In this document: positions 6,202 through 64,000 of the stretch, in pieces
Layout of the letters: every line of letters starts with the position of its first letter
Position numbering within the stretch: position 1 is the first letter of the stretch
Assembly (NCBI GenBank): GCA_014729395.1
Contig: WJJZ01000002.1
Coordinates: 64,673 to 128,672, forward strand
From: Candidatus Magasanikiibacteriota bacterium
GTDB lineage: Bacteria; Patescibacteriota; Patescibacteriia; Magasanikbacterales; UBA922
DNA: 64,000 nucleotides
Reading direction: 5' to 3'
Program-made: the position numbers and the translations under genes
The notes under the pieces: model-generated
Database searches by the model: none
What the model was told of the DNA's origin: nothing
Seen by the model: only the letters and a program-made list of their open reading frames with translations

Positions 6202-6279
6202 AAACTAAATGATTAAAAAACACTACTCATGGTTTGAGTAGTGTTTTGGAAAATAAAATTTCCCCCTATTTGCACTTAA

Positions 6280-6381
6280 CTCGTAAATTTTTTTATGCTT
6301 ATGGCTTTGTCTCATGCTCCCTTTTAAAAAAGGCCACCCCTTTCGGAGTGGCCGCGTACAAAAAGTTTATTTGTGTAGGTG
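6280..6381 (-). repeat. Copy 1 of a ~100-bp intergenic terminator module (hairpin GGCCACTCCGAAAGGGGTGGCC plus T6 on the minus strand)
   Basis: Near-identical to 7511-7609. Acts as a rho-independent terminator for the minus-strand membrane-protein gene. Confidence 0.6.
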
Positions 6382-7398: not shown

Positions 7399-7510
7399 CG
7401 TTTGCTCCTTTGTGCAAATATGTAACGGGAATTGGCTAAAAGGATCTGGTTGGAGCTTAGTTTAAATTTTAAATTTTGTCAATATTACAATTTTCCCATT
7501 TTGTAATCAA

Positions 7511-7609
7511 ATCGTAAATTTTTTTGTTTATAAATTTTTTCATGATCCCTTTTAAAAAAGACCACCCCTTTAGGAGTAGCCGCGTACAAAAAATTTATTT
7601 GTGTAGGTG
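7511..7609 (-). repeat. Copy 2 of the intergenic terminator module (hairpin partly degenerated)
   Basis: Shares the tail AAAAGGGAnCATGA...CCGCGTACAAAAAnTTTATTTGTGTAGGTG with copy 1. Lies downstream of guaB on the minus strand. Confidence 0.55.
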
Positions 7610-12845: not shown

Positions 12846-14963
12846 TTATTTGTTTTTTTCGTTGTGTTTATCCATGTCGATTAAAATTAATGTCGCATCA
12901 TCCGGTTTGTTGAGTGAGGGGTCTGTGACAGTACGTACGAAGTCTTCAGGATTTTTGTATTTATCAAAATCCATAGGTTCACGTGTAAAATTTCTTTTAT
13001 TTGCCGTATTTCCGACTTGACCTGAACTATTATTTTCAGCTTTTGCATCCTTATCTGAAAAATCTAAGTAATTATCTGAAAAAAAATCTGTGGCTATGCA
13101 AATTTGTCTTCCCGGTTGGTATTCTATATTGTGAATATTTTCAACAAAACCTATATCAGTATTTCCGAGCTCTATGCCAAAAGCATGATCCGCTAAACTG
13201 ATTCCGGCAGTTTCATCGCCGAACCCTGTATACTCACCATTTTCATTTCTTATATAAAGTGGACTGTCTCCCATCACGACAAATTTCCACGAACCATCTG
13301 TTTGCTTTTGGACAATAGTTAGGGTGGTAAATGCCGATTCCAAATCTCTTCGGGTTGTCCATTTCCCTTCTCTCTCATTTGCATTTTTATATTCCTGAGA
13401 TTTTTTTATTTTATCCAATATAAGATACAATTTATTTCTTCCGTTACTTGTATTAAAAATTTCATCCAAAGACATATCAAGATTCACCAGCTCATGAGAA
13501 ATTTGTTTTGCCAAAACTCCGGATTTTCCATAGCTACCCATACCGTCACAGACAGCAAAGGTTTTTCGGTCCCCACTTACGGCAAAAGCGTCTTGACCGG
13601 CTTTGTGGTTACTGTGAAGTATTTTAAAACCGTATTTATTCAAATCACCAATAATTACCGGTTCATCTTTGGCTATATCTAAAGAATTCAGCTCTTTTCC
13701 TTCGATTATTTTATTCCTCCCTTCTTTTATTTGTTTGTAAGCCTCATAAATTTTATCATTGTCATCGAAATAATCATTCTTATCATCTTCAATCCATTTA
13801 TTGATCAAGCGTCTGACATCATGAGATATTTTTTTGTTAGTTGTCTCTCCTTGTGATTTAATAATTTCTTCTATTTTCACTATTTGACTGCGAATTTCGG
13901 GATCATCGTTTTCAAGAGCTTCATTATACATGTCTAAAACGGCTTCTTTGTTTTTTAGATCTTCCGGCGATCTGTCTAAGGTAGCTATTTGAGCAATTAT
14001 TTTATTCAACAGTTTGTCATCAATGTTTTCATCGTATTCGTCTCTTATGGTTTTTTTCATACTATCTTTTATGTCATCTTCTACGCTCGAAGCTGTTAGA
14101 TCTCTCATCTCTGATCCAGTCATTTCTGCGTATTCGGGTTTTTTTTCCGGTTCTTTCGGTTCGGGCTGATCGTTTTTATCTTCGGCTTCCGAGGTATCCG
14201 GCTGTGGCTCAGCATCGGTTTCTTTTTCAGATTCATCCTCTTTCGGAGTTTCTGTTTCCGGTTCAATTTTGGCGTCAGTTTTGGATGTTTCCTCGCTTTC
14301 TTCTTTTGTGGTAGACGAGGCAGAAGAAGGTTGGTCAACTTCGGTGTCAATCTCGGAACCGGTTGCTTTATCAGTAGATTCAGTCTCAGTCGGAATTGCT
14401 TCACGAACTTGATTTAACCAGTCGTCATCCAAGAATTTTTTTAGCTTTTCACTCATCTGACCTCTGTTTTTATTCACATATTCATATACACCTTTATATC
14501 CACCTAAGTGAAACTGGTCAACAACATTATCAAATTCAGCTTTATCTTTTTTCGACATTTTTCGATATGTTTTTGTCTCTTTTCTCAGACTTTCGCCTCT
14601 ACCAAATATTTTTCCGGTTGCTTTGCCGGCAACTCTTTTTATTTTGGACAAAAAGCCTTTTATATTCCTTTTATTTTGAGCTTCCAATTTGGTTACTCTA
14701 TTGTCTATATCATTGATTTTTTCATTGTGTCCGCCAACTGTCTTTTTAATTTCTTCAGTATCTTTTTTTATGGTTCCCAGCTCGTTTTCGTTATTTTCGG
14801 ACAAGAGGGTGGCCTGTTTTTCTTCTTCGTTCATTTCTTCAAGACCCTGTTCCAGCGGGCTTTGTTCGGTTTTTTCCAGGTCGGCTTTTTGTTCCGGTGA
14901 GGGTGGCGGCGGGGGCGAGACCTGTTCCGAGCCGGTATTTTTTTGTGGTACTGCTTCTGGCAT
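12846..14963 (-). CDS. Large low-complexity protein with a C-terminal PP2C-like Ser/Thr phosphatase domain
   Basis: 705 aa. The N-terminal ~430 aa are an acidic/Lys-rich region with a proline run. The C-terminus has GQDAFAV...FAVCDGMGSYG and later Asp-rich metal-binding motifs typical of PP2C/SpoIIE. Confidence 0.55.
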   Translation of the reverse strand: MPEAVPQKNTGSEQVSPPPPPSPEQKADLEKTEQSPLEQGLEEMNEEEKQATLLSENNENELGTIKKDTEEIKKTVGGHNEKINDIDNRVTKLEAQNKRNIKGFLSKIKRVAGKATGKIFGRGESLRKETKTYRKMSKKDKAEFDNVVDQFHLGGYKGVYEYVNKNRGQMSEKLKKFLDDDWLNQVREAIPTETESTDKATGSEIDTEVDQPSSASSTTKEESEETSKTDAKIEPETETPKEDESEKETDAEPQPDTSEAEDKNDQPEPKEPEKKPEYAEMTGSEMRDLTASSVEDDIKDSMKKTIRDEYDENIDDKLLNKIIAQIATLDRSPEDLKNKEAVLDMYNEALENDDPEIRSQIVKIEEIIKSQGETTNKKISHDVRRLINKWIEDDKNDYFDDNDKIYEAYKQIKEGRNKIIEGKELNSLDIAKDEPVIIGDLNKYGFKILHSNHKAGQDAFAVSGDRKTFAVCDGMGSYGKSGVLAKQISHELVNLDMSLDEIFNTSNGRNKLYLILDKIKKSQEYKNANEREGKWTTRRDLESAFTTLTIVQKQTDGSWKFVVMGDSPLYIRNENGEYTGFGDETAGISLADHAFGIELGNTDIGFVENIHNIEYQPGRQICIATDFFSDNYLDFSDKDAKAENNSSGQVGNTANKRNFTREPMDFDKYKNPEDFVRTVTDPSLNKPDDATLILIDMDKHNEKNK

Positions 14964-17602: not shown

Positions 17603-18316
17603 TTAAATTTCAATTTTGATGCTCGGCCCCATCGAACTGGTTAGGTAAAGGGCTTTTATAAAGGTACCCTTCATTCCAATCGGTTTGGCTTTTTTTAGTG
17701 CGTCAATAAAAGTCTCTATATTCTCTTTCAGCTTTTTTTCATCAAAACTTATTTTTCCAACCATTAAATGTATGTTACCACCGTCATCATTTCTAAAAGC
17801 CATTTTTCCTTTTTTCAATTCTTCAACCATCTCGGCCACGTTTGGTCCTACAGTTCCAGTTTTCGGACTGGGCATCAGGCCTTTTGGTCCCAGAACTTTG
17901 GCAGCTACAGCCAGCTTTGGCATCATTTCAGGTGTGGCAACGGCAATATCGAACTCAATTTTACCGGTATCTTTGATTTTTTTTATATCTTCTTCACCGC
18001 AGACAAAATCCGCTCCGGCATCTTTGGCAGCACTCTCATCATTAGATCCGACAAAAGCGGCAACTTTTTTTGTTTTACCGCTGCCATGAGGTAATACAAC
18101 TGTGGTACGAATTTGTTGGTCGCCTTTTTTAGGATCAATCCCAAGACTAGCGTGAAGTTCTACAGAAGCATCAAATTTTACTGTAGATGTTTCTTTAACG
18201 AGTGCTATCGCCTCGTCTAAACTATAGGCTTTCGTAGGGTCTAATTTAGCCTTTTGCTCATTCATTCTTTTTGACATAGATATATTTTTGTGTGGTACAA
18301 GCCCTTGAGTGGTCAA
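17603..18316 (-). CDS. rplA: 50S ribosomal protein L1 (true start probably at the internal MSKRMNEQ)
   Basis: Conserved L1 core ([41 protein letters not shown]). Confidence 0.9.
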
Positions 18317-18363
18317 GGTCCCACTTGTTTAAAGTGCTATATTTATACTAAATTTGGAGTTTT

Positions 18364-18501
18364 TTGTCAAGGAAAGGTAGTTCACTGTTCACAGCTCCTC
18401 AAGTCTGAGCGACGAAATCGCTAGACTTCGGAGTCGAAGACCAGCAGAGGTCGATTAAATTTTGACTTTAAACAATGCCTGTTGGCTGTGAACTGAGAAC
18501 T
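18364..18501 (-). repeat. ~140-bp intergenic repeat element, copy a (inverted copy at 62619-62763), ending in an outward -35 box for rplA
   Basis: ~85% identity to 62619-62763 over ~135 bp. It has terminal inverted motifs CAGTTCnCAG / CTGTGAACnG, and on the minus strand TTGACA-17-TATAAA (-35 at 18364-18369, -10 at 18341-18346). Confidence 0.65.
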
Positions 18502-18502
18502 G

Positions 18503-19513
18503 TTATGTAACATCATTCTGTCTCTTACCACTAAGATAAGCATTTACATTATCAACGGCCGTATCAATTATACGTTTTATAGCTTCAGTACTGTTGAAAG
18601 CGCTGTGCGGGGTAACAACTGTATTGGGGTGATTGATTATTTTGTGATTGATTTCATTGTTTTTTAGTTTTTTCTTATCTTTTATTTTATTTAAGACTCT
18701 TTTTGGTGCATCTATAAGTTCTTCATCTTCAAAAACATCCAGGCCGGCTCCGTTTATCCTGTTTGTTTCCAGTGCCCAAAGAAGTGCTTTTGGCTCTATC
18801 AGCCCACCTCTCGCGGTGTTTATTATATATGAACCTTTTTTTATTTTTTTTATATTTTTAGTATTTATCATATGGTAGGTACTGGGGAAAAGGGGAACAT
18901 GCATAGAAATGATATCTGACTTTGAAAGCAAAGTGTTTAAAGTGGAGACATACTTAAAACCATGCTTTTTCTGCAAAGATTTTTTTGGAAAGGCATCATA
19001 GGCAATTACGTCCACCTCAAAACCTTTGAGCATTTTTATCAAATAAATACCAATATGCCCGGTACCAACAACACCGACAGTTTTATCTTTTAAATCAAAA
19101 CCTCTTAGGCCATGATAATCATATATGCCGTGTTTGGCGCGCTCGGCTGCAACAAAAATTCTTCTTGAAAGGGTCAAAATTAAAGCCATGGCGTGCTGAG
19201 CAACTGTATTTTCTCCATAAGTCGGAACATTGCAAACCGGAATACCTCTTTTTTTGGCTTCTTTTATATCTACATTGTCGTAACCTGTGGAGAATGTGGT
19301 TATCATTTTCAGTTCCGGTAGTTTATCCAATACCTCTTTGTTTACTTTAGAATCCACAAATACTCCCAGTATTTCTGTCTTTGGGTCAATATTTTTTTTA
19401 TTCAATGGCTCGTTGATTATTTTTACATTCAATTTTTTTGTTTTGCTTTTTAGATAGTCATTCATGTCCGGGACGAAGGTATAGAAGACCGCTTTTGGTT
19501 TATTTTTGGGCAT
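18503..19513 (-). CDS. D-isomer-specific 2-hydroxyacid dehydrogenase (NAD-binding)
   Basis: 336 aa. It has the GVVGTGHIG Rossmann motif and a conserved catalytic R/E/H pattern. It sits between rplK and rplA. Confidence 0.8.
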   Translation of the reverse strand: MPKNKPKAVFYTFVPDMNDYLKSKTKKLNVKIINEPLNKKNIDPKTEILGVFVDSKVNKEVLDKLPELKMITTFSTGYDNVDIKEAKKRGIPVCNVPTYGENTVAQHAMALILTLSRRIFVAAERAKHGIYDYHGLRGFDLKDKTVGVVGTGHIGIYLIKMLKGFEVDVIAYDAFPKKSLQKKHGFKYVSTLNTLLSKSDIISMHVPLFPSTYHMINTKNIKKIKKGSYIINTARGGLIEPKALLWALETNRINGAGLDVFEDEELIDAPKRVLNKIKDKKKLKNNEINHKIINHPNTVVTPHSAFNSTEAIKRIIDTAVDNVNAYLSGKRQNDVT

Positions 19514-19564
19514 AAAAATTTTAAATAATGATAAAAATATTGATTTATAATATATAGCTGTTTT

Positions 19565-19641
19565 GTCATTCCCGCGAAGGCGGGAATCCAGGAGAAGAAG
19601 TTTGTTGTGGTAGGCTGGATTCCCGCCTTCGCGGGAATGAC
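19565..19641. repeat. Nested palindrome: two 27-nt arms GTCATTCCCGCGAAGGCGGGAATCCAG and its exact reverse complement, separated by 23 nt
   Basis: The arms are perfect reverse complements, and each arm is itself a hairpin (TTCCCGC-GAAG-GCGGGAA). Read directly. Confidence 0.7.
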
Positions 19642-19785
19642 ACGGTTCTGCCGGGGTTTATTTTGATGAATGATACCTGGAAACTTTGATAGGTTTATTT
19701 ATTTTATATATTATAGCAAATTAATTTAGAACTTAAAAAACACCGGCCTTAGAGCCGATGTCTTTTTATTTTTTAATACGCAGTT

Positions 19786-29834: not shown

Positions 29835-30707
29835 CTATTTATTTAGGTTTTTTTTAATACTAAAAATTACAAGCCTGCTTAATTCTGCCAAATCTTTTTT
29901 TATTTCGATTTTTGTTTTTGGAAAATATTTTTTTATCAGATTTGGGATTGCTTCGGATTGGGAGGGGTCGATTTCGATGATTGTGGTGATTTGTGACTGG
30001 TGATTAGAGATTAGTGACCGGACTTGCTTGAAGAGTTTTTCATATAGCGCCAGGCCTTGATTTCTCGCTACAAGAGCTTTTTTGGGTTCGTGCTGGATTG
30101 AGGGTTCGGATCGGTACTGGTCTTCGGTTAAGTAGGGGAGGTTGGCGACAATGAGCAATGAACAATGAGTAGTGAGCAATTTTTTATTTATAATTGGTTG
30201 GAGTAAATTGCCATGGAGAAATTCTATTTTTACCTTGTGTTTTTTTGCATTTTTTTTGGCGATCCTGATGGCCTTTCGGGATATATCGGTTGCAAAAATT
30301 TTATATGTTGTCCCGCTGCTGTCCCCGAGTGCTGAAGAGACGGATATTGGAATGCAGCCGGATCCGGTGCCGACATCAATTAAGATTGTCTTATCCTTAT
30401 TTTTTAAAATCGACAAAACTTCTTCCACAATCATTTCCGTTTCCGGACGGGGAATCAATACATACTTATTTACTAAAAAATTTGTACCATAAAATTCTTT
30501 GTTTCCGGTTAGGTAGGCGATTGGAACAACCCGGGAACGTTTTTTTGCCAAGGCTTTGTATTTTATCTCCTGCAGCTTGGAAATTTTTTGTTTGGGATGA
30601 GAAATAATAAACTCGCGTGTTTTTTGCAAAACATGAGACAGTAGCAATTCGCTTTCGCGTCTATCGATTTTTGATTTTTGTAAAAGTTTAGCTATTGTTT
30701 CCGCCAT
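29835..30707 (-). CDS. prmC: Release factor glutamine N5-methyltransferase (PrmC/HemK)
   Basis: It has the SAM motif IDVGTGSG and the substrate motif NLPY (an NPPY variant), and lies directly downstream of prfA. Confidence 0.8.
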   Translation of the reverse strand: MAETIAKLLQKSKIDRRESELLLSHVLQKTREFIISHPKQKISKLQEIKYKALAKKRSRVVPIAYLTGNKEFYGTNFLVNKYVLIPRPETEMIVEEVLSILKNKDKTILIDVGTGSGCIPISVSSALGDSSGTTYKIFATDISRKAIRIAKKNAKKHKVKIEFLHGNLLQPIINKKLLTTHCSLLIVANLPYLTEDQYRSEPSIQHEPKKALVARNQGLALYEKLFKQVRSLISNHQSQITTIIEIDPSQSEAIPNLIKKYFPKTKIEIKKDLAELSRLVIFSIKKNLNK

Positions 30708-30737: not shown

Positions 30738-31808
30738 TCAAGATTCCATTTCTTCATAATCAGCCACACGAAGAGCTTCGATGATGTCCTCCAAGTCTCC
30801 ATCCAAAATTTTTTGTATGTTATTCCAGCTTTTTTTAATACGATGATCGGTAATACGATCTTGCGGAAAATTGTAAGTGCGAATTTTTTCACTTCTGTCG
30901 GCTCTACCAATTTGTTTTTTTCGTTTTGTGTCAATCTCAGCTTGCTGTTTTTCTCTTTCCAGTTCATAAAGCCTGGCACGTAAAACATTCATGGCTTTGG
31001 TTTTGTTTTGTAGTTGCGATCTTTCATCCTGACATTGGACTACGGTGTCGGTTGGAATATGAGTAATGCGAACGGCGCTATAGGTTGTGTTTACGCTTTG
31101 GCCGCCATGGCCGCCGGCACAGAATGTATCTATACGCAGGTCATTGGGATCTATTTCAAATTCAGTTTCTTCTATTTCAGGTAGAACAGCCACGCTGGCG
31201 GTAGAGGTGTGTATACGTCCCGATTTTTCCGTTTCGGGAATTCTTTGAACTCTATGAACACCCATTTCATATTTCAAATTTTTATAAACATTGTTTCCTT
31301 CTATGGAAAAAATAACTTCCTTATATCCGCCAATTCCGATTTGATTTTCATTTAAGAGTTTTGTCTTCCATTTTTTACTTTCAGCGTATTTCATATACAT
31401 TCGCATTAGATCGCCAGCAAAAAGGGCGGCCTCATCTCCACCGGCACCGGCTCTAATTTCTATGATGACATCTTTTTTGTCCAAAGGATCGGTCGGTTTG
31501 GTTAAATTTTTCAATTCAGATTCTAATTTTTGTTTTTTCTTTTCCAATTCCGCAAGTTCGGCTTCAGCCATTTTCTTCATGTCGTCAGTTTCATTGTCTA
31601 CCATTTCTTGAGTGCCTGTTAAATTGGTTTCTACTTGTTCCAAATCCATAATTTTTTCTATGATAGGTTTTAAGTCATCATATTCTTGTGCTACTGTTTT
31701 TAGTCTTTTTTGGTCAGCAATAACATCAGGATTTTGTAAATCCTGTTCCAGTTGATTATATTTATTTTTTAGTTGTATATATTTTTTTTGCATATATTTA
31801 CAGTTCAC
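30738..31808 (-). CDS. prfA: Peptide chain release factor 1
   Basis: It has the GGQ motif ([23 protein letters not shown]) and class-I release-factor architecture. Confidence 0.9.
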
Positions 31809-31870
31809 AGTTTTCGGTTCACAGTCAACAGGGAAGTAATATCCTGAGAATTGAGAACGTCTGACTATAA
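31800..31870. repeat. Partial copy (d) of the CAGTTCACAG repeat family, between rpmE and prfA
   Basis: CAGTTCACAGTTTTCGGTTCACAGTCAACAGG shares the GTTCnCAG(C/T)CAACAG core with copies a, b and c. Confidence 0.5.
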
Positions 31871-32237: not shown

Positions 32238-32310
32238 AATTTACGGATAAGTAATAATGCGGATTTACTGATAACTTGCCTGCCGGCAGACAGGCACATA
32301 TCTGAATTAT
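32238..32310. repeat. Copy A of the modular intergenic repeat family (TTACGGATAA / GCGGATTTAC / CTGATAAC / GCCTGCCGGCAGaCAGGC)
   Basis: It shares sub-modules with 61596-61660, 62176-62225 and 62826-62979. Confidence 0.55.
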
Positions 32311-34715: not shown

Positions 34716-34852
34716 TAGTTTTCAGTTCGCAGCCAACAGTTCGCAGACGTTGTTGTTAGTTAGATATATTGCACTATATCAGACATAAACAATGTTTGTT
34801 GTCTGCGCACTGTGAACTGTAGACTGTGTACTGTGTACTGTGAACTGACAAA
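34716..34852. repeat. Copy c of the CAGTTCnCAG repeat family (CAGTTCGCAGCCAACAGTTCGCAG ... CTGTGAACTGTAGACTGTGTACTGTGTACTGTGAACTG), immediately upstream of tRNA-Leu
   Basis: It has terminal inverted GTTCGCAG / CTGTGAAC motifs and the shared CCAACAG core. Confidence 0.55.
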
Positions 34853-38598: not shown

Positions 38599-39582
38599 AT
38601 GGCAAAACCAATCATTATATCAGGTATCCAACCCACAGGTAATCTCCATATTGGAAATTATTTGGGTGCGGTTAAAAATTGGGTGGAATTACAAAATTCC
38701 GGCAAATATGAAATGTATATTTTTATTGCCGACCTGCACTCCTTGACCGGTAATATGTCCGCTCTTGATAGACGAGAACAAATTATTAGAACTGCGGTTG
38801 AATTAATGGCCGCCGGGATTAACCCGGAGAAGACTGTATTTTTTGTACAGTCGCATATAACAGAACACAGTGAATTGGCCTGGATTTTTAATTGTGTTTG
38901 CCCCATATCTGAACTTGAAAGAATGACCCAATTCAAAGATAAGTCCGAACGACAAGTAAAAAATATCAATACCGGCTTGCTTACTTATCCGATTTTACAA
39001 GCGGCGGATATTTTGATGTATAAAGCGGCCAAAGTACCGGTTGGCCAAGACCAAATTCAACATATTGAGTTAACCCGCGATATTGCTCGCTGGTTTAATA
39101 ATCGTTTTGAAGACTACTTCCCCGAGACCGAACCACTCTTGACCGAAACCCCAAAAGTGATGAGTCTGCTTGAACCGGCCAAAAAGATGAGTAAAAGTTT
39201 GGGCGAGGGGCATGTGATTGAGTTGGCTGATGAACCCAAAGTAATTGAGAAAAAAATTAAAAAAGCGGTTACCGCGACCGAAGGCGGAGGAGAAGCTCCG
39301 GGAGTAGCAAATTTGTTATTGTTCCTGAAAAATTTTGCTGATAAGTCAGTTTATGATCAGTTTGTGGAAGAAGAAAAAACCGGCAAGATTCAGTATGGTG
39401 ATTTGAAAAAACAAGTCAGTGATTCAATATCAAGCTACTTTCAAAATTTTAGAGATATAAGAGAGGAATTAATGCTTGATCACGATAAAATAGCTGAAAC
39501 ATTGATTGTCGGAGCTGAAAAAGCGAGTGCGGTGGCGAAAAAGACAATGGAGGATGTGAGGAGAATGGTTGGGGTTAGGTGA
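38599..39582 (+). CDS. trpS: Tryptophan--tRNA ligase
   Basis: It has the HIGH motif (TGNLHIGNYLG) and KMSKS. Confidence 0.9.
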   Translation: MAKPIIISGIQPTGNLHIGNYLGAVKNWVELQNSGKYEMYIFIADLHSLTGNMSALDRREQIIRTAVELMAAGINPEKTVFFVQSHITEHSELAWIFNCVCPISELERMTQFKDKSERQVKNINTGLLTYPILQAADILMYKAAKVPVGQDQIQHIELTRDIARWFNNRFEDYFPETEPLLTETPKVMSLLEPAKKMSKSLGEGHVIELADEPKVIEKKIKKAVTATEGGGEAPGVANLLLFLKNFADKSVYDQFVEEEKTGKIQYGDLKKQVSDSISSYFQNFRDIREELMLDHDKIAETLIVGAEKASAVAKKTMEDVRRMVGVR

Positions 39583-39617
39583 TTGGAGACTGGAGATTGG
39601 AGATTGGTTCGATACTG

Positions 39618-39646
39618 TTGACTTTTTTATAGAAATCTATTATTAT
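39618..39646 (+). promoter_or_regulatory. Sigma70-like promoter TTGACT-17-TATTAT upstream of tRNA-Asn
   Basis: Read directly. Confidence 0.5.
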
Positions 39647-39652
39647 ATATGC

Positions 39653-39748
39653 ACTATGCAAAGAAAAAATAACAATAATAATTTTGAAGTCTCCTAGGCG
39701 GTGCATAGTTTTACATTACTAAACAAGCCCGCCGAGAGCGGGTTTTTC
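39653..39748 (+). ncRNA. Candidate ~95-nt small RNA or tRNA leader: long-range stem (ACTATGCA...TGCATAGT), then terminator GCCCGC-CGAGA-GCGGG plus T5
   Basis: A promoter upstream and an intrinsic terminator at the 3' end, immediately before tRNA-Asn. Confidence 0.3.
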
Positions 39749-39750
39749 AT

Positions 39751-39825
39751 TCCCAGATAGTTCAGCGGTAGAACACCACGCTGTTAACGTGGATGTCCCT
39801 GGTTCGAATCCAGGTCTGGGAGCCA
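39751..39825 (+). tRNA. tRNA-Asn (anticodon GTT), CCA encoded
   Basis: Hand-folded. Acceptor TCCCAGA/TCTGGGA, D-arm GTTC/GAAC, anticodon stem CCACG/CGTGG with loop CTGTTAA, T-arm CCTGG-TTCGAAT-CCAGG, then GCCA. Confidence 0.85.
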
Positions 39826-41406
39826 AGAGAGATTAAGCGAGGTTAAAGCCTCGTTTTTTCTTTTACTTAAGGGAAAATTTAGCGGTTCTAACCTTGTTAA
39901 TTTGTCGTTGTGATTTTTTGCGTTTTCTAAAATAGGGTTAAGCCAGTCATGCACTGAAATTAGCACTTTTTTGTCTTTAAATTCTCGGTTCGAACCTAAA
40001 CTTGTTACTATTTCTTTTTTCTTTGTTTTGTCGCCATTATTAAAGTCTTCCAAGGCATGAGCAGAGAAACAAAACCTTTCTTTTGTTAGTTCGATTGAAT
40101 CATTTTTTTTGTCCTCGTTATTATTTATATTTTTTAAGTTTGCAATTTGTTTTTCAAGTGTATTCTTTTGTTTTAAGAAATTATTGTCGTCAATCAACTT
40201 TTTACTTCTCATAATAATTAGTTCAGATAACTGATTTTTTAATTCTTCTAACTCGTTATTTTTATTTTTTTCAATAACCTTACTTTGAGATTTCTCTATT
40301 CCTTTCTGTTTATCTAAATGTTTCAAAGTTAAATCAAGAAAATGCGGATGTATAACTAACTTTTCTAATTTATCGGTAACATCTCTCGTTATCTCTTTTT
40401 CTTCAACCGAACCTTGTTTACAATTTGCCTCCTTCTTTTTGTGGGTGCAGTGATAATAACTATATCCTTTAACTTTATTTTTACTTTTAATATACTTTGT
40501 TTTATGTTCGGCTGTAATACTGCAACCGCAAACTGCACACTTAAACATGCCTGCATAAGTAAAATTTTGTTTAGTTGGCTGTCTTTTACATCCTCTTTTA
40601 CCAAGCAGTTCTTGAATACGATTAAATTCATCTAAGCTAAGTAAGGGCTTATGTTTACCTTTGCTTTCTTTGCCATTATAAACGATTATACCAGCGTAAA
40701 AAGGGTTAGATAATATTTTATACCAACTAGAACGAGATAAGCTCTTACCGCCTGATTTTTTCTTTTTCCGTGTTTTATAATGCCACTCATTATTTAAAAT
40801 ATCAAAAACTTCTTGGGCGGTATAAGCACCAGTTAAAAATAAGTCAAAAGCCTTTCTAAGAAGCGTTGACCTCTCTTTATCTACGATGATAGTCCGTTGA
40901 CCTTTCTCTAGTCGTAGATCGTTCAAATAGCCCTCTGGAGCAATCCCAGGTCGCCACCCTAAAGATATTTTTTTCTCCAAACCTCGTTTTACATCTTTAC
41001 CTAATTTTGAAGAAAAATATTGAGATTGAGAAAGGGCTAATTGCAACATCATTATACCCTCGGGAGAGTTATCAAAGTTATATGAAGCAAATTTTAAATC
41101 ATGGATAATCCCAGTTCTCACCAAGTATGTAATACTTGAAGCGTCAATTTCGTTTCGGCTTAATCTATCAGGATGCCATGCAATTATTCCTTGTGCCTCG
41201 CCTAATTTAATCCGTCTAATCATATCTTCAAAGACAGGTCGGTTATATGGTTTAAAGGCAGAGTGTTTTTCCTCCATGACTTCCACAATATCCAAATCAG
41301 GGTGAATTTCTTTCACTTTGTCTTTTTGGTTTTCTATTGATAATGCCTGTCGTTCATCGCCCTCGGTGGACTTTCGAACATAGGCAAAATATTTAGTTTG
41401 AGTATT
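39784..41406 (-). CDS. Large serine recombinase (integrase); 3' end overlaps the tRNA-Asn 3' end
   Basis: N-terminal resolvase domain (YVRKSTEGDERQ..., HPDRLSRN), recombinase domain, Cys4 zinc ribbon (CAVCGC...CTHK..C) and a C-terminal coiled coil. Start taken at MNTQTK. Confidence 0.8.
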   Translation of the reverse strand, partial: NTQTKYFAYVRKSTEGDERQALSIENQKDKVKEIHPDLDIVEVMEEKHSAFKPYNRPVFEDMIRRIKLGEAQGIIAWHPDRLSRNEIDASSITYLVRTGIIHDLKFASYNFDNSPEGIMMLQLALSQSQYFSSKLGKDVKRGLEKKISLGWRPGIAPEGYLNDLRLEKGQRTIIVDKERSTLLRKAFDLFLTGAYTAQEVFDILNNEWHYKTRKKKKSGGKSLSRSSWYKILSNPFYAGIIVYNGKESKGKHKPLLSLDEFNRIQELLGKRGCKRQPTKQNFTYAGMFKCAVCGCSITAEHKTKYIKSKNKVKGYSYYHCTHKKKEANCKQGSVEEKEITRDVTDKLEKLVIHPHFLDLTLKHLDKQKGIEKSQSKVIEKNKNNELEELKNQLSELIIMRSKKLIDDNNFLKQKNTLEKQIANLKNINNNEDKKNDSIELTKERFCFSAHALEDFNNGDKTKKKEIVTSLGSNREFKDKKVLISVHDWLNPILENAKNHNDKLTRLEPLNFPLSKRKNEALTSLNLSWLPDLDSNQGHPR

Positions 41407-41561
41407 CATAAAATTTATTAAAAACAAAAAGGGACGGTCGTGGAGACCCAACTAAACATTACCAAAAGCAATATTTGTCGGCACAAACCGCCCCTTTCTG
41501 GGGACAAATATAAAACAAAAGCTCTCGGTATTTAATTGTTTAGTTAGGTCTCACATTTATA

Positions 41562-41756
41562 CTAACAATAATCATCAGGATTATCAAGATGTTTACTGTA
41601 TTTTTTCCAGTTCTTTTTACTCATCGGCTTATAAGTAATTTTAACAAGCGTAATCAGGGCGGTAGCTTGTTCTAATGCCTCGGCTCTATCAAGGGTTTTT
41701 CCAAACTCTTGTTTATACAAAGCTATGAAGTCATTTAAAAATTCTTCTGTAATCAT
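41562..41756 (-). CDS. Hypothetical small protein encoded within the element
   Basis: 64 aa; overlaps the Rep stop codon by 4 nt. Confidence 0.3.
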   Translation of the reverse strand: MITEEFLNDFIALYKQEFGKTLDRAEALEQATALITLVKITYKPMSKKNWKKYSKHLDNPDDYC

Positions 41757-60953: not shown

Positions 60954-61044
60954 TAAACCATAAATTTTTAATCAGAAATAATAAATGATTTTAATTCTGA
61001 ATTTTAGATTTATGATTTCTGATTTTGTATTTATGATTTAAATT

Positions 61045-61599
61045 ATGGCTTATCACACAGGCAATGAAATGGTAGATCCATATCTTCTTTTTGAAAGAGC
61101 CCAGTTGCGTCCCGGGATGCATGTGGCTGATTTGGGTTGTGGACGAACCGGACATGTGGTTTTTCCGGCCGCCGTGGTTTTAGGTGAAAGAGGTATTGTT
61201 TATGCTGTTGATATTTTGAAAGACGTATTGGAGATAATTCAAAAAAGAGCAAACACGAACCGGCTTTACAATATTCATACCGTATGGGCTAACTTGGAAC
61301 ATGTGGGAGCTACTGCTATTCCGGAAAAAAGCTTGGATGTGGCTTTTTTGGTAAATACTTTGGTACAAGCTGATAATCGTCATGGGGTTTTGGAAGAGGC
61401 TAAAAGGCTTTTGAAAGATAAGGCAAGATTAGTGATAGTGGATTGGGCTAGAAAGGGATTAAAATTCGGACCGCAGGATGAGAGATTTGTGGATTTTGAA
61501 AATATAAAGAAGTGGGCAAATATGCACGGCTTTGCTTTTCAGGAAGAATTTGATGTCGGTAGGTTCCATAAAGGTTTAGTGTTTTTTAAGCAGGAGTAA
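61045..61599 (+). CDS. Class I SAM-dependent methyltransferase
   Basis: Motif I VADLGCGRTG and motif II GIVYAVDI. Confidence 0.7.
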   Translation: MAYHTGNEMVDPYLLFERAQLRPGMHVADLGCGRTGHVVFPAAVVLGERGIVYAVDILKDVLEIIQKRANTNRLYNIHTVWANLEHVGATAIPEKSLDVAFLVNTLVQADNRHGVLEEAKRLLKDKARLVIVDWARKGLKFGPQDERFVDFENIKKWANMHGFAFQEEFDVGRFHKGLVFFKQE

Positions 61600-61660
61600 T
61601 AATTCGGATATGCTGATAACCTGCCTGCCGGCAGGCGGTGCAGATTTTCGGATAGTTTAA
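61596..61660. repeat. Copy B of the modular repeat family (AATAATTCGGATATGCTGATAAC-CTGCCTGCCGGCAGGCGG-TGCAGATTTTCGGATAG)
   Basis: Contains the perfect 14-mer palindrome GCCTGCCGGCAGGC. Confidence 0.55.
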
Positions 61661-61777: not shown

Positions 61778-62173
61778 ATGGAAAATAAATTAATATATGA
61801 GGAGTTAACTTATAAAATAAGAGGGTGTTTATATAAAGTCCATAATGAATTAGGCAGGTTATGTAATGAAAAACAATATGGTGATGCTTTAGAAGGCGAG
61901 TTAAAGAAAGAAGGAATACAACATAAAAGAGAGAAAATATTGGATAAATGTTTTGACGTTGAAAAATTTGGTAGAAATAGAGTTGATTTTATTGTTGAGG
62001 ATAAAATAATTTTAGAGCTCAAAACCAGTAATTGTTTAAGTAAAAATGATTATTTTCAGTGTCAAAGATACTTAACAAGTTCTGGTTTAAGACTGGCTTT
62101 ATTAGTCAATTTTAGATCAAAAAGAGTTGTAATCAAGAGAGTTCTCAATACGAAGATGTATAAAAATAAATAA
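61778..62173 (+). CDS. GxxExxY-family protein (PD-(D/E)XK nuclease-like)
   Basis: N-terminal YEELTYKIRGCLYKVHNELG and RVDFIV...LELK motifs. Confidence 0.55.
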   Translation: MENKLIYEELTYKIRGCLYKVHNELGRLCNEKQYGDALEGELKKEGIQHKREKILDKCFDVEKFGRNRVDFIVEDKIILELKTSNCLSKNDYFQCQRYLTSSGLRLALLVNFRSKRVVIKRVLNTKMYKNK

Positions 62174-62175
62174 TT

Positions 62176-62225
62176 TTATAAAGGACTATCCGTAAATCCG
62201 CATTATCAGCATATCCGAATTATTA
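62176..62225. repeat. Copy C of the modular repeat family (reverse orientation, lacks the palindrome core)
   Basis: Its reverse complement AATAATTCGGATATGCTGATAATGCGGATTTACGGATAGTCC joins the left module of copy B to the GCGGATTTACGGATA module of copy A. Confidence 0.55.
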
Positions 62226-62228
62226 TTT

Positions 62229-62621
62229 ATGTCACAAACAACCAAACAAAGAACCGGAAGTTGGGGAGAGCAACAAGCTGCTCTTTTTTTAACTAACCTG
62301 GGTTATAATATTTTAGAAAGAAATTATAAAATAAACGGTGGTAAAGAGGGTGAGCTTGATATTGTTGCTATCCATAAAAAGGATTTTTTAGGTGAAACCT
62401 TGTGTTTCGTAGAAGTAAAAACCAGAGGCCAAAAAGACGGTTCAGCCGAACGGGCTACAAGAGGAAATAAGATCAACAAATTTATGAAAGCCGGGCGTGC
62501 TTATTGTTTGGAGCAAGATATTAATATTGATTCTACTCCAATTCAGTTTGAGCAGGTTAGTGTGTACAAGGGTGAAGATGGGAGTGTTGAAATAAAGCAT
62601 TATGAAATTCCGGTGGGTTAG
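62229..62621 (+). CDS. yraN: YraN / UPF0102 family endonuclease
   Basis: GEQQAALFLTNLGYNILERNYK...GELDIVA. Confidence 0.6.
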   Translation: MSQTTKQRTGSWGEQQAALFLTNLGYNILERNYKINGGKEGELDIVAIHKKDFLGETLCFVEVKTRGQKDGSAERATRGNKINKFMKAGRAYCLEQDINIDSTPIQFEQVSVYKGEDGSVEIKHYEIPVG

Positions 62622-62763
62622 CAGTTCTCAGTTCTCAGTTCTCAGCCAACAGTATTGTTTAAAGTCAAAATTTAATCGACTTCTGCTGGTCTTCGACTCC
62701 GGGCTCTAGCGATTTCGTCGTTCAGGTTTGAGGAGTTGTGAATTGTGAACTGTTGTATTGACA
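62619..62763 (+). repeat. ~140-bp repeat element copy b (inverted relative to copy a), ending in a TTGACA that forms a promoter facing nusA
   Basis: Starts at the yraN stop codon. ~85% identity to the reverse complement of 18364-18501. TTGACA(62758-62763)-17-TATTAT(62781-62786). Confidence 0.65.
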
Positions 62764-62825
62764 AACGTGAAAAAATGTGATATTATCTATTTATAGTAGC
62801 ATAATCACAATGCTGCTTTTTTTAT

Positions 62826-62979
62826 ATCACGATACTGATATACGGATAATTCAGATTTACGGATCGTATTTTCTTAAATCAATATATTATTAACAAATTA
62901 AGAACAAATGATCCGTAGATCGGTGTGCATCCCTGCCTGCCGGCAGGCAGGTGTAAATCCGTATCGTGATTATCCGTAT
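62826..62979. repeat. Copy D of the modular repeat family: ~35-bp inverted arms (ATCACGATAC..TACGGATAAT..GATTTACGG / CCGTAAATC..ATTATCCGTA..GTATCGTGAT) enclosing GCCTGCCGGCAGGC
   Basis: Arms and central palindrome read directly; MITE-like architecture. Confidence 0.6.
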
Positions 62980-62999
62980 TATTATTAATAAATTGACGT

Positions 63000-64000
63000 A
63001 TGTCAGAAGTATCAAAAATGATAAAAATGATTTGCGATGAAAAAGGTCTTGATTATGACACTGTGCTTGAAGCTATTCAAACAGCTTTGGGGGCGGCTTA
63101 TCGTAAAGATTTTGGAAATCGTCAACAAAATATAAAAACAAAATTTGATCCCGATTCACAGGACATGGAAATGTGGGACGTAAAAGAGGTGGTGGAGGAT
63201 ATTGATGAGGAGACTTTGGAAAAAGCCCAAGAAGAGTTGGCCGAAAGGCGCGAAAAGGCTTTGGCGGAAGGCAGAGAATTGTCTGAAGAGGAAATTGAAG
63301 ATTTGCCGCGTTTTAACCCAAAGACTCAGATGATGATTAGTGATGCCAAAGAAATCGATAAAAAAGCAAGTGTTGGGGATATATTGGAAATACCTTTGGA
63401 AATTCCTGGTGATTTTGGTCGCATGGCTGCCCAGACCGCCAAACAAGTTATTATTCAAAAATTACGTGAAGCCGAGAGAAATAGCGTTTATGATGATTTG
63501 AAAGAACAGGAAGAACAAATAATTCAAGGGGTGGTACAAAGACGTGATCGTTCAGGAGCTGTAATAATTGATCTTGGTAAAATTACCGGACTTTTACCTC
63601 AAAATGAACAAATTCGTGGTGAAAAGTATATTCCGGGCAAACGCATGCGTTTTTACGTAATTTCTGTTGATATCGGTACTCGCGGTCCGGAAGTGGTCTT
63701 ATCCAGATCACATGAGGATATGGTTAAAACCGTTTTTGAACAGGAAATCCCTGAAATTGCCGACGGTTCGGTGATTATAAAAAAGATCGCTCGCGATCCG
63801 GGTCACCGTTCAAAAGTTTCCGTTTTTACAGAAGATGAATCAATTGATCCAATTGGCTCATGTATTGGCCAGCGTGGTAGTCGTATTACTACAATTATAG
63901 ATGAGCTTGGCGGTGAAAAAGTTGATATAATTTTATACAGTGAAGATATAGTTGAATATATTAAAAATTCTTTATCACCGGCAAAAATAGATGAAGTTGA
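63000..64000 (+). CDS. nusA: Transcription termination/antitermination factor NusA (5' portion; runs off the window)
   Basis: Hand-translated MSEVSKMIKMICDEKGLDYDTVLEAIQTALGAAYRK... with FGRMAAQTAKQVIIQKLREAER and an S1-domain segment (QGVVQRRDRSGAVIIDLG). Confidence 0.85.
   Translation, partial: MSEVSKMIKMICDEKGLDYDTVLEAIQTALGAAYRKDFGNRQQNIKTKFDPDSQDMEMWDVKEVVEDIDEETLEKAQEELAERREKALAEGRELSEEEIEDLPRFNPKTQMMISDAKEIDKKASVGDILEIPLEIPGDFGRMAAQTAKQVIIQKLREAERNSVYDDLKEQEEQIIQGVVQRRDRSGAVIIDLGKITGLLPQNEQIRGEKYIPGKRMRFYVISVDIGTRGPEVVLSRSHEDMVKTVFEQEIPEIADGSVIIKKIARDPGHRSKVSVFTEDESIDPIGSCIGQRGSRITTIIDELGGEKVDIILYSEDIVEYIKNSLSPAKIDEV

Follow-up and report, generated by a model that had tools for sequence, protein, structure and literature searches.

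Locus and structure of the repeat

We analyzed a stretch of 64,000 nucleotides (nt) from the genome of a Candidatus Magasanikiibacteriota bacterium (Patescibacteriota; assembly GCA_014729395.1, contig WJJZ01000002.1, positions 64,673 to 128,672), hereafter the window, with a focus on a non-coding element of 124-131 nt that occurs there in two full copies of opposite chromosomal orientation. The first base of copy A (18379..18502, minus strand, 124 nt), position 18502, lies immediately behind the TAA stop codon (18505-18503, minus strand) of a 2-hydroxyacid dehydrogenase gene, and the gene downstream is rplA (ATG at 18277). Copy B (62622..62752, plus strand, 131 nt) begins at 62622, directly behind the TAG stop codon (62619-62621) of yraN, the product of which belongs to the UPF0102 family of Pfam, and is followed by nusA (ATG at 63000). 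Both copies are located 3-8 nt 5' of a TTGACA box.

The preliminary description of this DNA had proposed a repeat pair, each member of which starts at the stop codon of the upstream gene, and both statements are borne out. Copies A and B are 89.4% identical across 123 nt (blastn, E 9e-41); an ungapped segment of 98 nt (18379-18476 against 62654-62751) is 90% complementary, the mean column identity of the trimmed alignment is 91%, and a covariance model built from the two copies scores 165.8 bits for A and 159.4 bits for B. The only open reading frames (ORFs) in the element, of 40-44 amino acids, extend beyond its boundaries. Read-through from the upstream ORF leads in frame to the same TAA in both copies, a one-in-three coincidence, and the intervening peptides are unlike each other.

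Read in the direction of the flanking genes, A and B both start with tandem CAGTTCN heptamers that are followed by CAGCCAACAG. The 5' arm of A reads CAGTTCT CAGTTCA CAGCCAA CAG and leads into a core of about 95 nt; that of B consists of three CAGTTCT units followed by CAGCCAA CA and the core common to A. The 3' arms, CTGTGAA CAGTGAACT in A and TTGTGAA TTGTGAACTG in B, end in (C/T)TGTGAA(CA/TT)GTGAACT and pair with the 5' heptamers. The ends of the element had been described as CAGTTCnCAG terminal inverted repeats; inverted ends are indeed present, but, as read from the sequence, they are built from a 7-nt unit in inverted arrays, CAGTTCN ... NGAACTG, rather than fixed terminal repeats, and the number of outer heptamers is unequal between A and B. 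The motif CAGTTCNCAG (with at most one mismatch) occurs 25 times, against 7.0 +/- 2.5 occurrences expected by chance, and CAGYCAACAG occurs 4 times, against 0.16 expected.

The homology between A and B ends at ...GTGAACT(G), and the next 6-8 nt cannot be aligned, so that the TTGACA boxes lie outside the repeated unit. The consensus-like promoters that had been noted beyond the copies, TTGACA-17-TATAAA and TTGACA-17-TATTAT, are present, and a TTGACA box adjoins each copy; the element itself, however, does not end in this box, and the two boxes align only because both are -35 boxes.

Two further elements in the window had been described as partial relatives of A and B, and the relationship holds for the arms but not for the core. 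Element C (34716..34847, plus strand, 132 nt) has arms like those of A and B, namely CAGTTCG CAGCCAA CAGTTCG on one side and six ACTG-type heptamers on the other (the heptamer number is unequal between its two arms as well), around an unrelated core without sequence similarity. It fills the whole gap between the stop codon of an SBP_bac_5 gene and a tRNA-Leu gene (34853), with no room left for a promoter, and no promoter-like site found, between C and the tRNA gene. Because no promoter gap separates C from tRNA-Leu, the two presumably have to be co-transcribed, which implies that such elements are tolerated inside transcripts. Element D (31801..31865, plus strand) is a short heptamer hairpin that consists of arms only, CAGTTCA CAGTTTT CGGTTCA CAGTCAA CAG ... 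CTGAGAA TTGAGAA, and is flanked by the rpmE terminator on one side and the start codon of prfA (31793) on the other, rpmE and prfA being minus-strand genes. Against the covariance model, C scores 26-28 bits on the two strands (25.9 on the plus strand) and D scores 17.5 bits.

Empty sites in related genomes

The dehydrogenase, NusA and RNase J encoded in the window are each 100% identical to proteins of a Candidatus Magasanikbacteria metagenome-assembled genome. The closest available relative is GCA_964433095.1, in which 53.8 kb of one contig, largely syntenic with the window, was rebuilt from three of the fetched loci (L129, L136 and L121); its amino-acid identity to the window is 86% for NusA, 81% for RNase J and 72% for the dehydrogenase. 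All four heptamer elements, A to D, are missing from the orthologous sites of this genome, in support of the earlier proposal of a dispersed, insertion-like repeat with inverted ends. At the site of A (L121), the distance from the dehydrogenase stop codon to the rplA ATG is only 107 nt; B is absent upstream of the nusA promoter (L129), and homology with the window resumes at GTATTGACA (62755). At the site of C, an unrelated spacer of 43 nt separates the SBP_bac_5 stop codon from tRNA-Leu(CAG), and at the site of D, 51 unrelated nt follow the conserved rpmE terminator hairpin before the prfA ATG. No arm remnants were seen at the promoter sites of the relatives. Compared with the four heptamer-armed elements in the 64-kb window, about 300 kb of Magasanikbacteria loci contain no CAGT/ACTG heptamer hairpins, only three isolated coincidences of a single CAGT with period 7.

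Between the methyltransferase gene and nusA, the window also contains an ORF of the PDDEXK_3 nuclease family (61778-62173) in addition to yraN; both are missing in the closest relative, and another relative (L130) carries yraN with a different neighboring gene. Not only repeats but also genes thus differ between genomes in this interval.

Arrays with a period of 7 nt are more widespread in the window than the CAGTTCN-type family, which accounts for four sites; the other heptamer arrays consist of unrelated units. The program TRF identifies 13 period-7 arrays in the window, against three trivial ones in the syntenic 53.8-kb contig of the relative; those within the elements discussed here are located at 31800-31825, 34809-34847 (5.6 copies) and 62622-62645 (3.4 copies, 100% match). 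Among the others, an array of 5.6 TTTATGA units belongs to a hairpin of the TTTATGA/CATAAAT type at 60954-61040, between an 82-amino-acid ORF and the methyltransferase gene, a gap that measures 37 nt in the relative, and GATTGGA is repeated 3.9 times at 39581-39607, directly behind the trpS stop codon. Periodicity of 7 nt is also found inside prmC, with CAATGAG x4.6 in the window (30149-30180, minus strand) and AGTGATC x4 in another Magasanikbacteria locus (L141, 846-873), at the same protein position in the two genomes, just before ANLPY (KLLTTHCSLLIV versus RSLITDHQSL). The L141 contig contains several heptamer arrays with yet other units.

Predicted promoters and leaders of rplA and nusA

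The predicted rplA promoter, TTGACA-17-TATAAA (18342..18370, minus strand), lies outside the repeat and is followed by the conserved leader GTGGGACCTTGACCACTCAAGGGCTTGTACCAC (18292..18324, minus strand) upstream of the start codon. In the closest relative, the dehydrogenase TAA is followed by 13 nt, TTGACA-17-TATAAC, GTGGGACCTTGATCATTCAAGGGCTAGTACCAC and the ATG, and the promoter precedes the leader as it does in the window (GTGGGACCTTGA...GTACCAC); the window thus has the promoter and leader of the relative plus a 124-nt element that separates the stop codon from the -35 box. In L122, L123 and L125, three more distant Magasanikbacteria, the genes upstream are different, and a promoter of the form TTGAC(A/T)-17-TAT(A/T)A(A/T) lies 5' of rplA, so that TTGAC(A/T)-17-TAT(A/T)A(A/C/T) is found at the orthologous site in all four genomes, none of which has the element. 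The leader pattern GTGGGAC(C)...CAAGGGC..GTACCAC is conserved in L121, L123 and L125; the L122 excerpt ends inside the leader. This leader has no match in Rfam and is probably a mimic of the L1-binding site that is predicted to mediate autoregulation.

In the window, inserted genes lie between rplK and rplA, and rplA is preceded by a promoter of its own. The rplK-rplA interval (18503-19785 in the window; L121, L122, L123, L125 and L126) is variable across Magasanikbacteria: it always includes the 2-hydroxyacid dehydrogenase gene, together with genes for Kazal/DUF6970 proteins, ArsP/SBF transporters or ORFs without assigned function, depending on the genome. The promoter and leader of rplA are retained throughout these genomes.

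The predicted nusA promoter, TTGACA-17-TATTAT with a TG extension (62758..62786, plus strand; 11 of 12 matches), likewise lies outside the repeat. A sequence of 13 nt, GTATTGACAAACG, is identical in the window and in the element-free locus of the closest relative. The relative reads ...GTATTGACAAACGCG...TAACAT...AGTAGCAT-loop-ATGCTGCTTTTTTTATA...ATG, and the window reads GTATTGACAAACGTG...TATTAT...AGTAGCAT-loop-ATGCTGCTTTTTTTATA, homology to the empty site restarting 3 nt before the -35 box, right behind the end of B. The hairpin AGTAGCAT..ATGCTGCT TTTTTTT of the nusA leader (62795..62825, plus strand) is ancestral as well, given that the relative keeps the same stem and T-run (AGTAGCAT..ATGCTGCTTTTTTT) after the promoter, and an equivalent nusA promoter with an analogous hairpin leader is found in L130, L131 and L127.

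The order of promoter, hairpin and T-run, spaced within about 10 nt, upstream of nusA (62758-62825 in the window, 9913-9985 in L129, and in L130, L131 and L127) is a feature in its own right: across Magasanikbacteria, the stem of the leader hairpin is kept and the loop is variable. Autoregulatory attenuation is known for the nusA operons of other bacteria, and this leader may be a putative NusA-sensitive autoregulatory attenuator. The comparison supplies working annotations for the promoters and leaders of rplA and nusA in Magasanikbacteria.

These observations bear directly on the earlier proposal that the element delivers promoters to rplA and nusA, either as a transposable element of the miniature inverted-repeat kind (MITE) that donates promoters or as a conserved cassette combining a 3' untranslated region or terminator with a promoter. 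Under the former version, an outward -35 box at the end of the element would have created both promoters upon insertion, in the manner of the Correia elements of Neisseria. A repeat that abuts a perfect -35 box does look like a promoter donor: TTGACA without a mismatch stands within 3-8 nt of both copies, with a -10-like box beyond a spacer of 17 nt, and promoter-carrying MITEs are known (reviewed in PMC3184786). However, the similarity between A and B is lost before TTGACA, homology at the B locus resumes upstream of this box, and both the closest and four more distant element-free relatives have the same promoters at the same position relative to the conserved leaders. Unlike Correia elements, in which the promoter is inside the repeat and arrives with it, the element is not the source of these promoters, which are present at empty orthologous sites. 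Because the same promoters and leaders are found in relatives that lack the element, we conclude that the predicted rplA and nusA promoters are ancestral and predate it.

The geometry of the sites accounts for the arrangement that suggested donation. At both the rplA and the nusA locus of the relative, only about 13 nt separate the stop codon from the -35 box, so that a tolerated insertion must touch the stop codon on one side and the -35 box on the other; there is no other tolerated place at the site for a copy to start and end, and the chief argument for promoter donation is thereby removed. For the predicted promoters, the empty-site comparison refutes donation by either copy, and we regard this explanation as extremely unlikely: the promoters are old and the repeat is a recent arrival in a 13-nt gap. 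The version of a conserved cassette for genes of translation and transcription is not supported either, as the element is absent from the approximately 300 kb of other Magasanikbacteria DNA.

The core and its distribution

The core of about 95 nt is a feature specific to A and B. The covariance model, run over 227 kb including the relatives, recovered only A and B, with C and D as weak hits and nothing else credible. A 21-mer from the best-conserved stretch of the core had no match in metagenome contigs, a collection without the source genome or close copies, in which a NusA query identified only two loci, at 48% identity. In viral contigs, a 19-mer had no match and a 16-mer had four chance matches inside unrelated sequence; phage records yielded no match; and in plasmid records only the arm matched, in Paraburkholderia, Rhodococcus and Vibrio, the core being without a match. 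Nor was the core found in any fetched locus, including the 120 loci listed from the genome collection described below.

Several known classes of structured elements were considered for A to D. Rfam, searched over the whole window at the gathering threshold and at E values up to 10, yielded nothing at the four elements. A tRNA-like core was rejected, as neither ARAGORN nor Rfam calls anything there. An integron attC site, considered for the long imperfect palindrome right behind a stop codon, was rejected as well: no pairing RYYYAAC/GTTRRRY core sites are found at the ends, there is no integrase, and the dehydrogenase gene is in place in relatives that lack the element. Nor are A and B canonical intrinsic terminators, for the arms are followed by ACCTTTCC in A and TTGTATT in B, with no T-run; no terminator-like site was detected at A or C, and the only one at B is the ancestral nusA leader hairpin, 43 nt downstream.

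Heptamer hairpins in other phyla

The arms of A to D belong to the known, unexplained class of ACTG-type heptanucleotide repeats: they consist of head-to-tail CAGT/ACTG units in intergenic DNA, and the motif counts exceed chance. To this class belong also the short tandemly repeated repetitive (STRR) sequences of cyanobacteria, the heptamer units of which we take to be CCCCAGT, TTGGTCA and CAACAGT, and the heptamers known as 'long simple sequence repeats'.

A scan of a genome collection of 596 Gb with the short pattern CAGTTCNCAGYCAACAG returned matches most of which, among those listed, are due to chance. Among the 120 loci listed, there are nevertheless at least 21 pairings of a CAGT array with a complementary ACTG array within 200 nt, in at least 16 loci (L002, L007, L044, L050, L052, L061, L063, L081, L085, L086, L093, L104, L108, L110, L113 and L114). 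Still among the matches listed, the units of these hairpins are of the CAGTYNA type (CAGTTCA, CAGTCAA, CAGTTGA and CAGTCGA), the hosts include Terriglobia and other Acidobacteriota, Bacteroidota, Actinomycetes, Rhodoferax (Proteobacteria) and others, and the hairpins, with loops of 6-96 nt, are tightly packed between genes. Plebeiibacterium sediminum has three hairpins in one 8-kb stretch, with up to 16 units per arm, and an Uhrbacteria locus (L053) contains a similar hairpin that is shorter and less regular. Rfam, at the gathering threshold, yielded nothing in 15 other-phyla loci with heptamer hairpins.

It is tempting to speculate that inverted CAGTYNA arrays around variable loops form a single class of mobile or factor-bound intergenic elements that spans Acidobacteriota, Bacteroidota, Actinomycetota, Proteobacteria, Cyanobacteria and Patescibacteria, in which the STRR and the TAACTGA repeats discussed below would be half-sites, and A and B would represent the capture and copying of a 95-nt cargo by such a hairpin. 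We consider such unification improbable; if true, it would imply a shared recognition or copying machinery, beyond mere polymerase slippage.

Origin of the repeat

Judging from the sequence comparisons, A and B constitute a lineage-specific dispersed repeat, with at least two copies, that is lodged in the gaps between stop codons and predicted promoters and is not the source of these promoters. It is reasonably probable that they represent a non-coding unit, similar to MITEs or to REPINs (hairpin-forming doublets of repetitive extragenic palindromic, or REP, sequences), that has been copied between sites. The inverted heptamer arrays can pair into a long stem, interrupted about every 7 base pairs (bp), that closes the core of about 95 nt; folding predictions support long closing stems of this kind for B (z-score -2.35), A (-3.74) and C (-3.22). 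The whole unit, arms and core, would be copied from site to site as a non-autonomous element, with the heptamer arms acting as the recognized or recombining ends and an enzyme encoded elsewhere in the genome acting in trans. Once inserted, the element would be carried as a 3' tail on the transcript of the gene upstream, where it might form a large RNA hairpin that protects the 3' end or partly insulates the downstream promoter, although the element is most likely neutral or selfish DNA. The occurrence of the same heptamer family at four sites, with other arrays consisting of unrelated units, favors copying over independent growth at each site. The inverted ends and the short core agree with the earlier description of the element as a MITE, but the marks that define a MITE, a target-site duplication and, among the roughly 55 ORFs scanned in the window, a transposase, were not found.

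Several observations weigh against such copying. The window holds only two full copies, with two arm-only relatives. Inspection of the sequences revealed no target-site duplication at any of the four elements, and no matching direct repeat is present in the flanks of A (ACATAA|...|ACCTTTCC), B (GGTTAG|...|TTGTATT), C (AAATAG|...|ACAAAG) or D. A Pfam scan of about 55 ORFs of the window detected no transposase, including the Y1 transposases associated with REP sequences (RAYTs). In other genomes, the heptamer hairpins within one genome all have different loops, and such unique loops fit arms that arise around local sequence as well as they fit a mobile unit. The evidence from folding is mixed: there is no compensatory double change between A and B (n=2); the sense strand, as defined by the flanking genes, gives the better fold in B, C and D, the antisense, by a slight margin, in A; and the heptamer hairpins of other phyla favor the sense strand in 7 of 12 cases, with no consistent bias. 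Strand-biased folding, considered as a sign of RNA function, was accordingly rejected, as it is suggestive for B, C and D but fails for A and in other phyla.

The folding data are also central to an alternative under which the element is a selected, structured RNA in the sense of the flanking genes, that is, a 3'-end or non-coding RNA module that stabilizes RNA, acts as an insulator or factor-dependent terminator, or is bound by a protein. Between A and B, the core differs at one of 48 nt in its 5' half, against about 10 of 50 nt in its 3' half; the gene-sense fold of B is 8 kcal/mol more stable than the antisense fold and includes 10 G-U pairs; and the three long elements are all oriented like the flanking genes. 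All five differences within the predicted helices of A and B retain pairing through G-U, but this pattern is equally expected from ordinary C-to-T transitions, and the double change that would indicate compensation is missing. Moreover, the element is absent from every relative examined, which indicates that the genes manage without it, A does not share the strand preference of B, and the element has no Rfam match, contains neither a promoter nor a terminator and is not followed by a T-run behind the stem. The folding data do not establish a functional RNA, and we consider this alternative unlikely. The main mechanistic rival to copying of a mobile unit is slippage combined with gene conversion: without any transposition, replication slippage and hairpin-templated copying would lengthen the arrays on the spot, and gene conversion or homologous recombination by way of the arms would have moved the core between two heptamer hairpins that already existed. 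Such growth would account for the enrichment of heptamer arrays of several unrelated units in the window genome and their presence in the L141 contig, for the unequal numbers of outer heptamers in A and B and in the two arms of C, for the hairpins with unique loops elsewhere, and for the lack of target-site duplications and of a transposase among the ORFs scanned; slippage has been proposed as the cause of the heptamer excess in bacteria (Mrazek 2007, as cited in PMC4679880 and PMC4692102). It leaves unexplained, however, the presence of the same CAGTTCN/CAGYCAA unit at four unlinked sites, with neighboring arrays using other units, and the identical arms at sites that are empty in the relative. 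We regard growth in place as rather unlikely, if less so than an RNA function, and retain the copying of a MITE- or REPIN-like unit as the preferred explanation.

Other features of the window

A second intergenic repeat family is present at 32240-32300, 61585-61650 and 62826-62990, with a half copy at 62173-62229. It consists of a G+C-rich palindrome, CCTGCCTGCCGG(C/T)AGGCAGG, between ATCCGTA/TACGGAT-like units, and its folds are long hairpins (-57.7 kcal/mol for 62826-62999). Compared with the closest relative (L129), the nusA 5' leader of the window has the copy of about 165 nt at 62826-62990 inserted. The family is also found in L137 and L139 (both in the spacer between the SBP gene and tRNA-Leu) and in L123 and L125 (both in the rplA 5' region), and the palindrome and the ATCCGTA-type units occur in other genera of Magasanikbacteria. 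A direct repeat of 75 nt (6307-6381 and 7535-7609; 91% identical, at a distance of 1228 nt) includes a GGCCACCCCTTTCGGAGTGGCC hairpin with conserved sequence next to it, and the similarity reaches into 6250-6294 and 7481-7525.

The tRNA-Asn(GTT) gene (39751) is preceded by a promoter-like TTGACT-17-TATTAT (39618-39646, plus strand) and by a mini-ORF (39656-39697) that encodes MQRKNNNNNFEVS*, with five consecutive Asn codons at 39668-39682. The TAG stop codon of the mini-ORF abuts GGCGG, followed by CCCGCCGAGAGCGGG and TTTTT (39728-39747), and GGCGG could pair with CCGCC in the 5' arm of this terminator. The closest relative (L136, about 13560-13675) retains the run of five Asn codons (MQINTGNNNNNSKDF*), with differences in the other codons, as well as the four-codon spacing to TAG-GGCGG and the same hairpin. 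The mini-ORF and the terminator together look like a candidate leader-peptide attenuator in which cognate codons would control a tRNA gene; to our knowledge, there is no precedent for the control of a tRNA gene by a leader-peptide attenuator through its cognate codons. The same tRNA gene is the site of an integrated element (approximately 39790-48737), an island that the relative lacks. Next to ORFs without a Pfam match, this island encodes a large serine recombinase (39784-41451, minus strand), a Rep protein of the ORF2/G2P family (41753-42526, minus strand) and a DpnI-like endonuclease (43026-43853); the displaced 3' half of tRNA-Asn (48698-48737) is 97.5% identical to the tRNA-Asn of the relative.

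Comparison with known repeats

The element described here combines features of three kinds of bacterial repeats. With its inverted arms around a short core that lacks a transposase gene and a total size under about 400 bp, it has the architecture of a MITE. Like the bacterial MITEs Correia, ERIC and Nezha, it is shorter than 200 bp and can form a long stem-loop, and, as is typical of MITEs, it is located at the 3' end of a gene, is probably co-transcribed with it and seems to vary in presence between relatives (PMC3184786). It differs from MITEs in that neither a target-site duplication nor a cognate insertion sequence was found in the window and in that its ends are arrays of variable length instead of fixed terminal inverted repeats; unlike Correia elements, it does not supply the neighboring promoter.

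The likeness to REPINs (Bertels and Rainey 2011, PMC3116915), which extends by analogy to the architecture of two inverted units and a spacer that together form a hairpin of about 100 nt in single-stranded DNA or mRNA, also includes the extragenic, non-coding and dispersed character of the repeats within one genome. In contrast to REPINs, the arms begin with CAGTTC and lack a GTAG/CGTC head, tandem heptamers take the place of the single REP palindrome, and no RAYT gene was seen in the window.

The closest resemblance in sequence is to the ACTG-type heptamers. Among the long simple repeats of many bacteria, it is the heptamers that are most in excess, and three heptanucleotide repeats have been reported in Calothrix (PMC4692102). 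In Beggiatoaceae, Cyanobacteria and Bacteroidetes, direct repeats of TAACTGA adjoin start or stop codons; close relatives lack them in the corresponding intergenic regions, their length changes by steps of 7 nt, and their function is unexplained (MacGregor 2015, PMC4679880). Like the ACTG-type heptamers, the arms of A to D consist of 7-nt units with a CAGT/ACTG core that are arranged head to tail in 2-6 copies, with related heptamers mixed in; like the TAACTGA and STRR repeats, they are intergenic, often abut a stop or start codon, are missing in close relatives and vary in 7-nt steps. Element D stops 7 nt short of the start codon of prfA, in the manner of the 'forward' TAACTGA sets. Unlike the TAACTGA repeats, among which one inverted case was found in 170 sets (PMC4679880), the arrays described here form inverted hairpin pairs, and those of A and B enclose a common 95-nt core. 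The host belongs to the Patescibacteria, a group outside the cited heptamer literature (PMC4679880, PMC4692102). Copies A and B thus add a patescibacterial example to the poorly understood ACTG-type heptamer repeats, in the form of a hairpin around a duplicated core, and may help to decide whether heptamer repeats spread by copying or grow by slippage.

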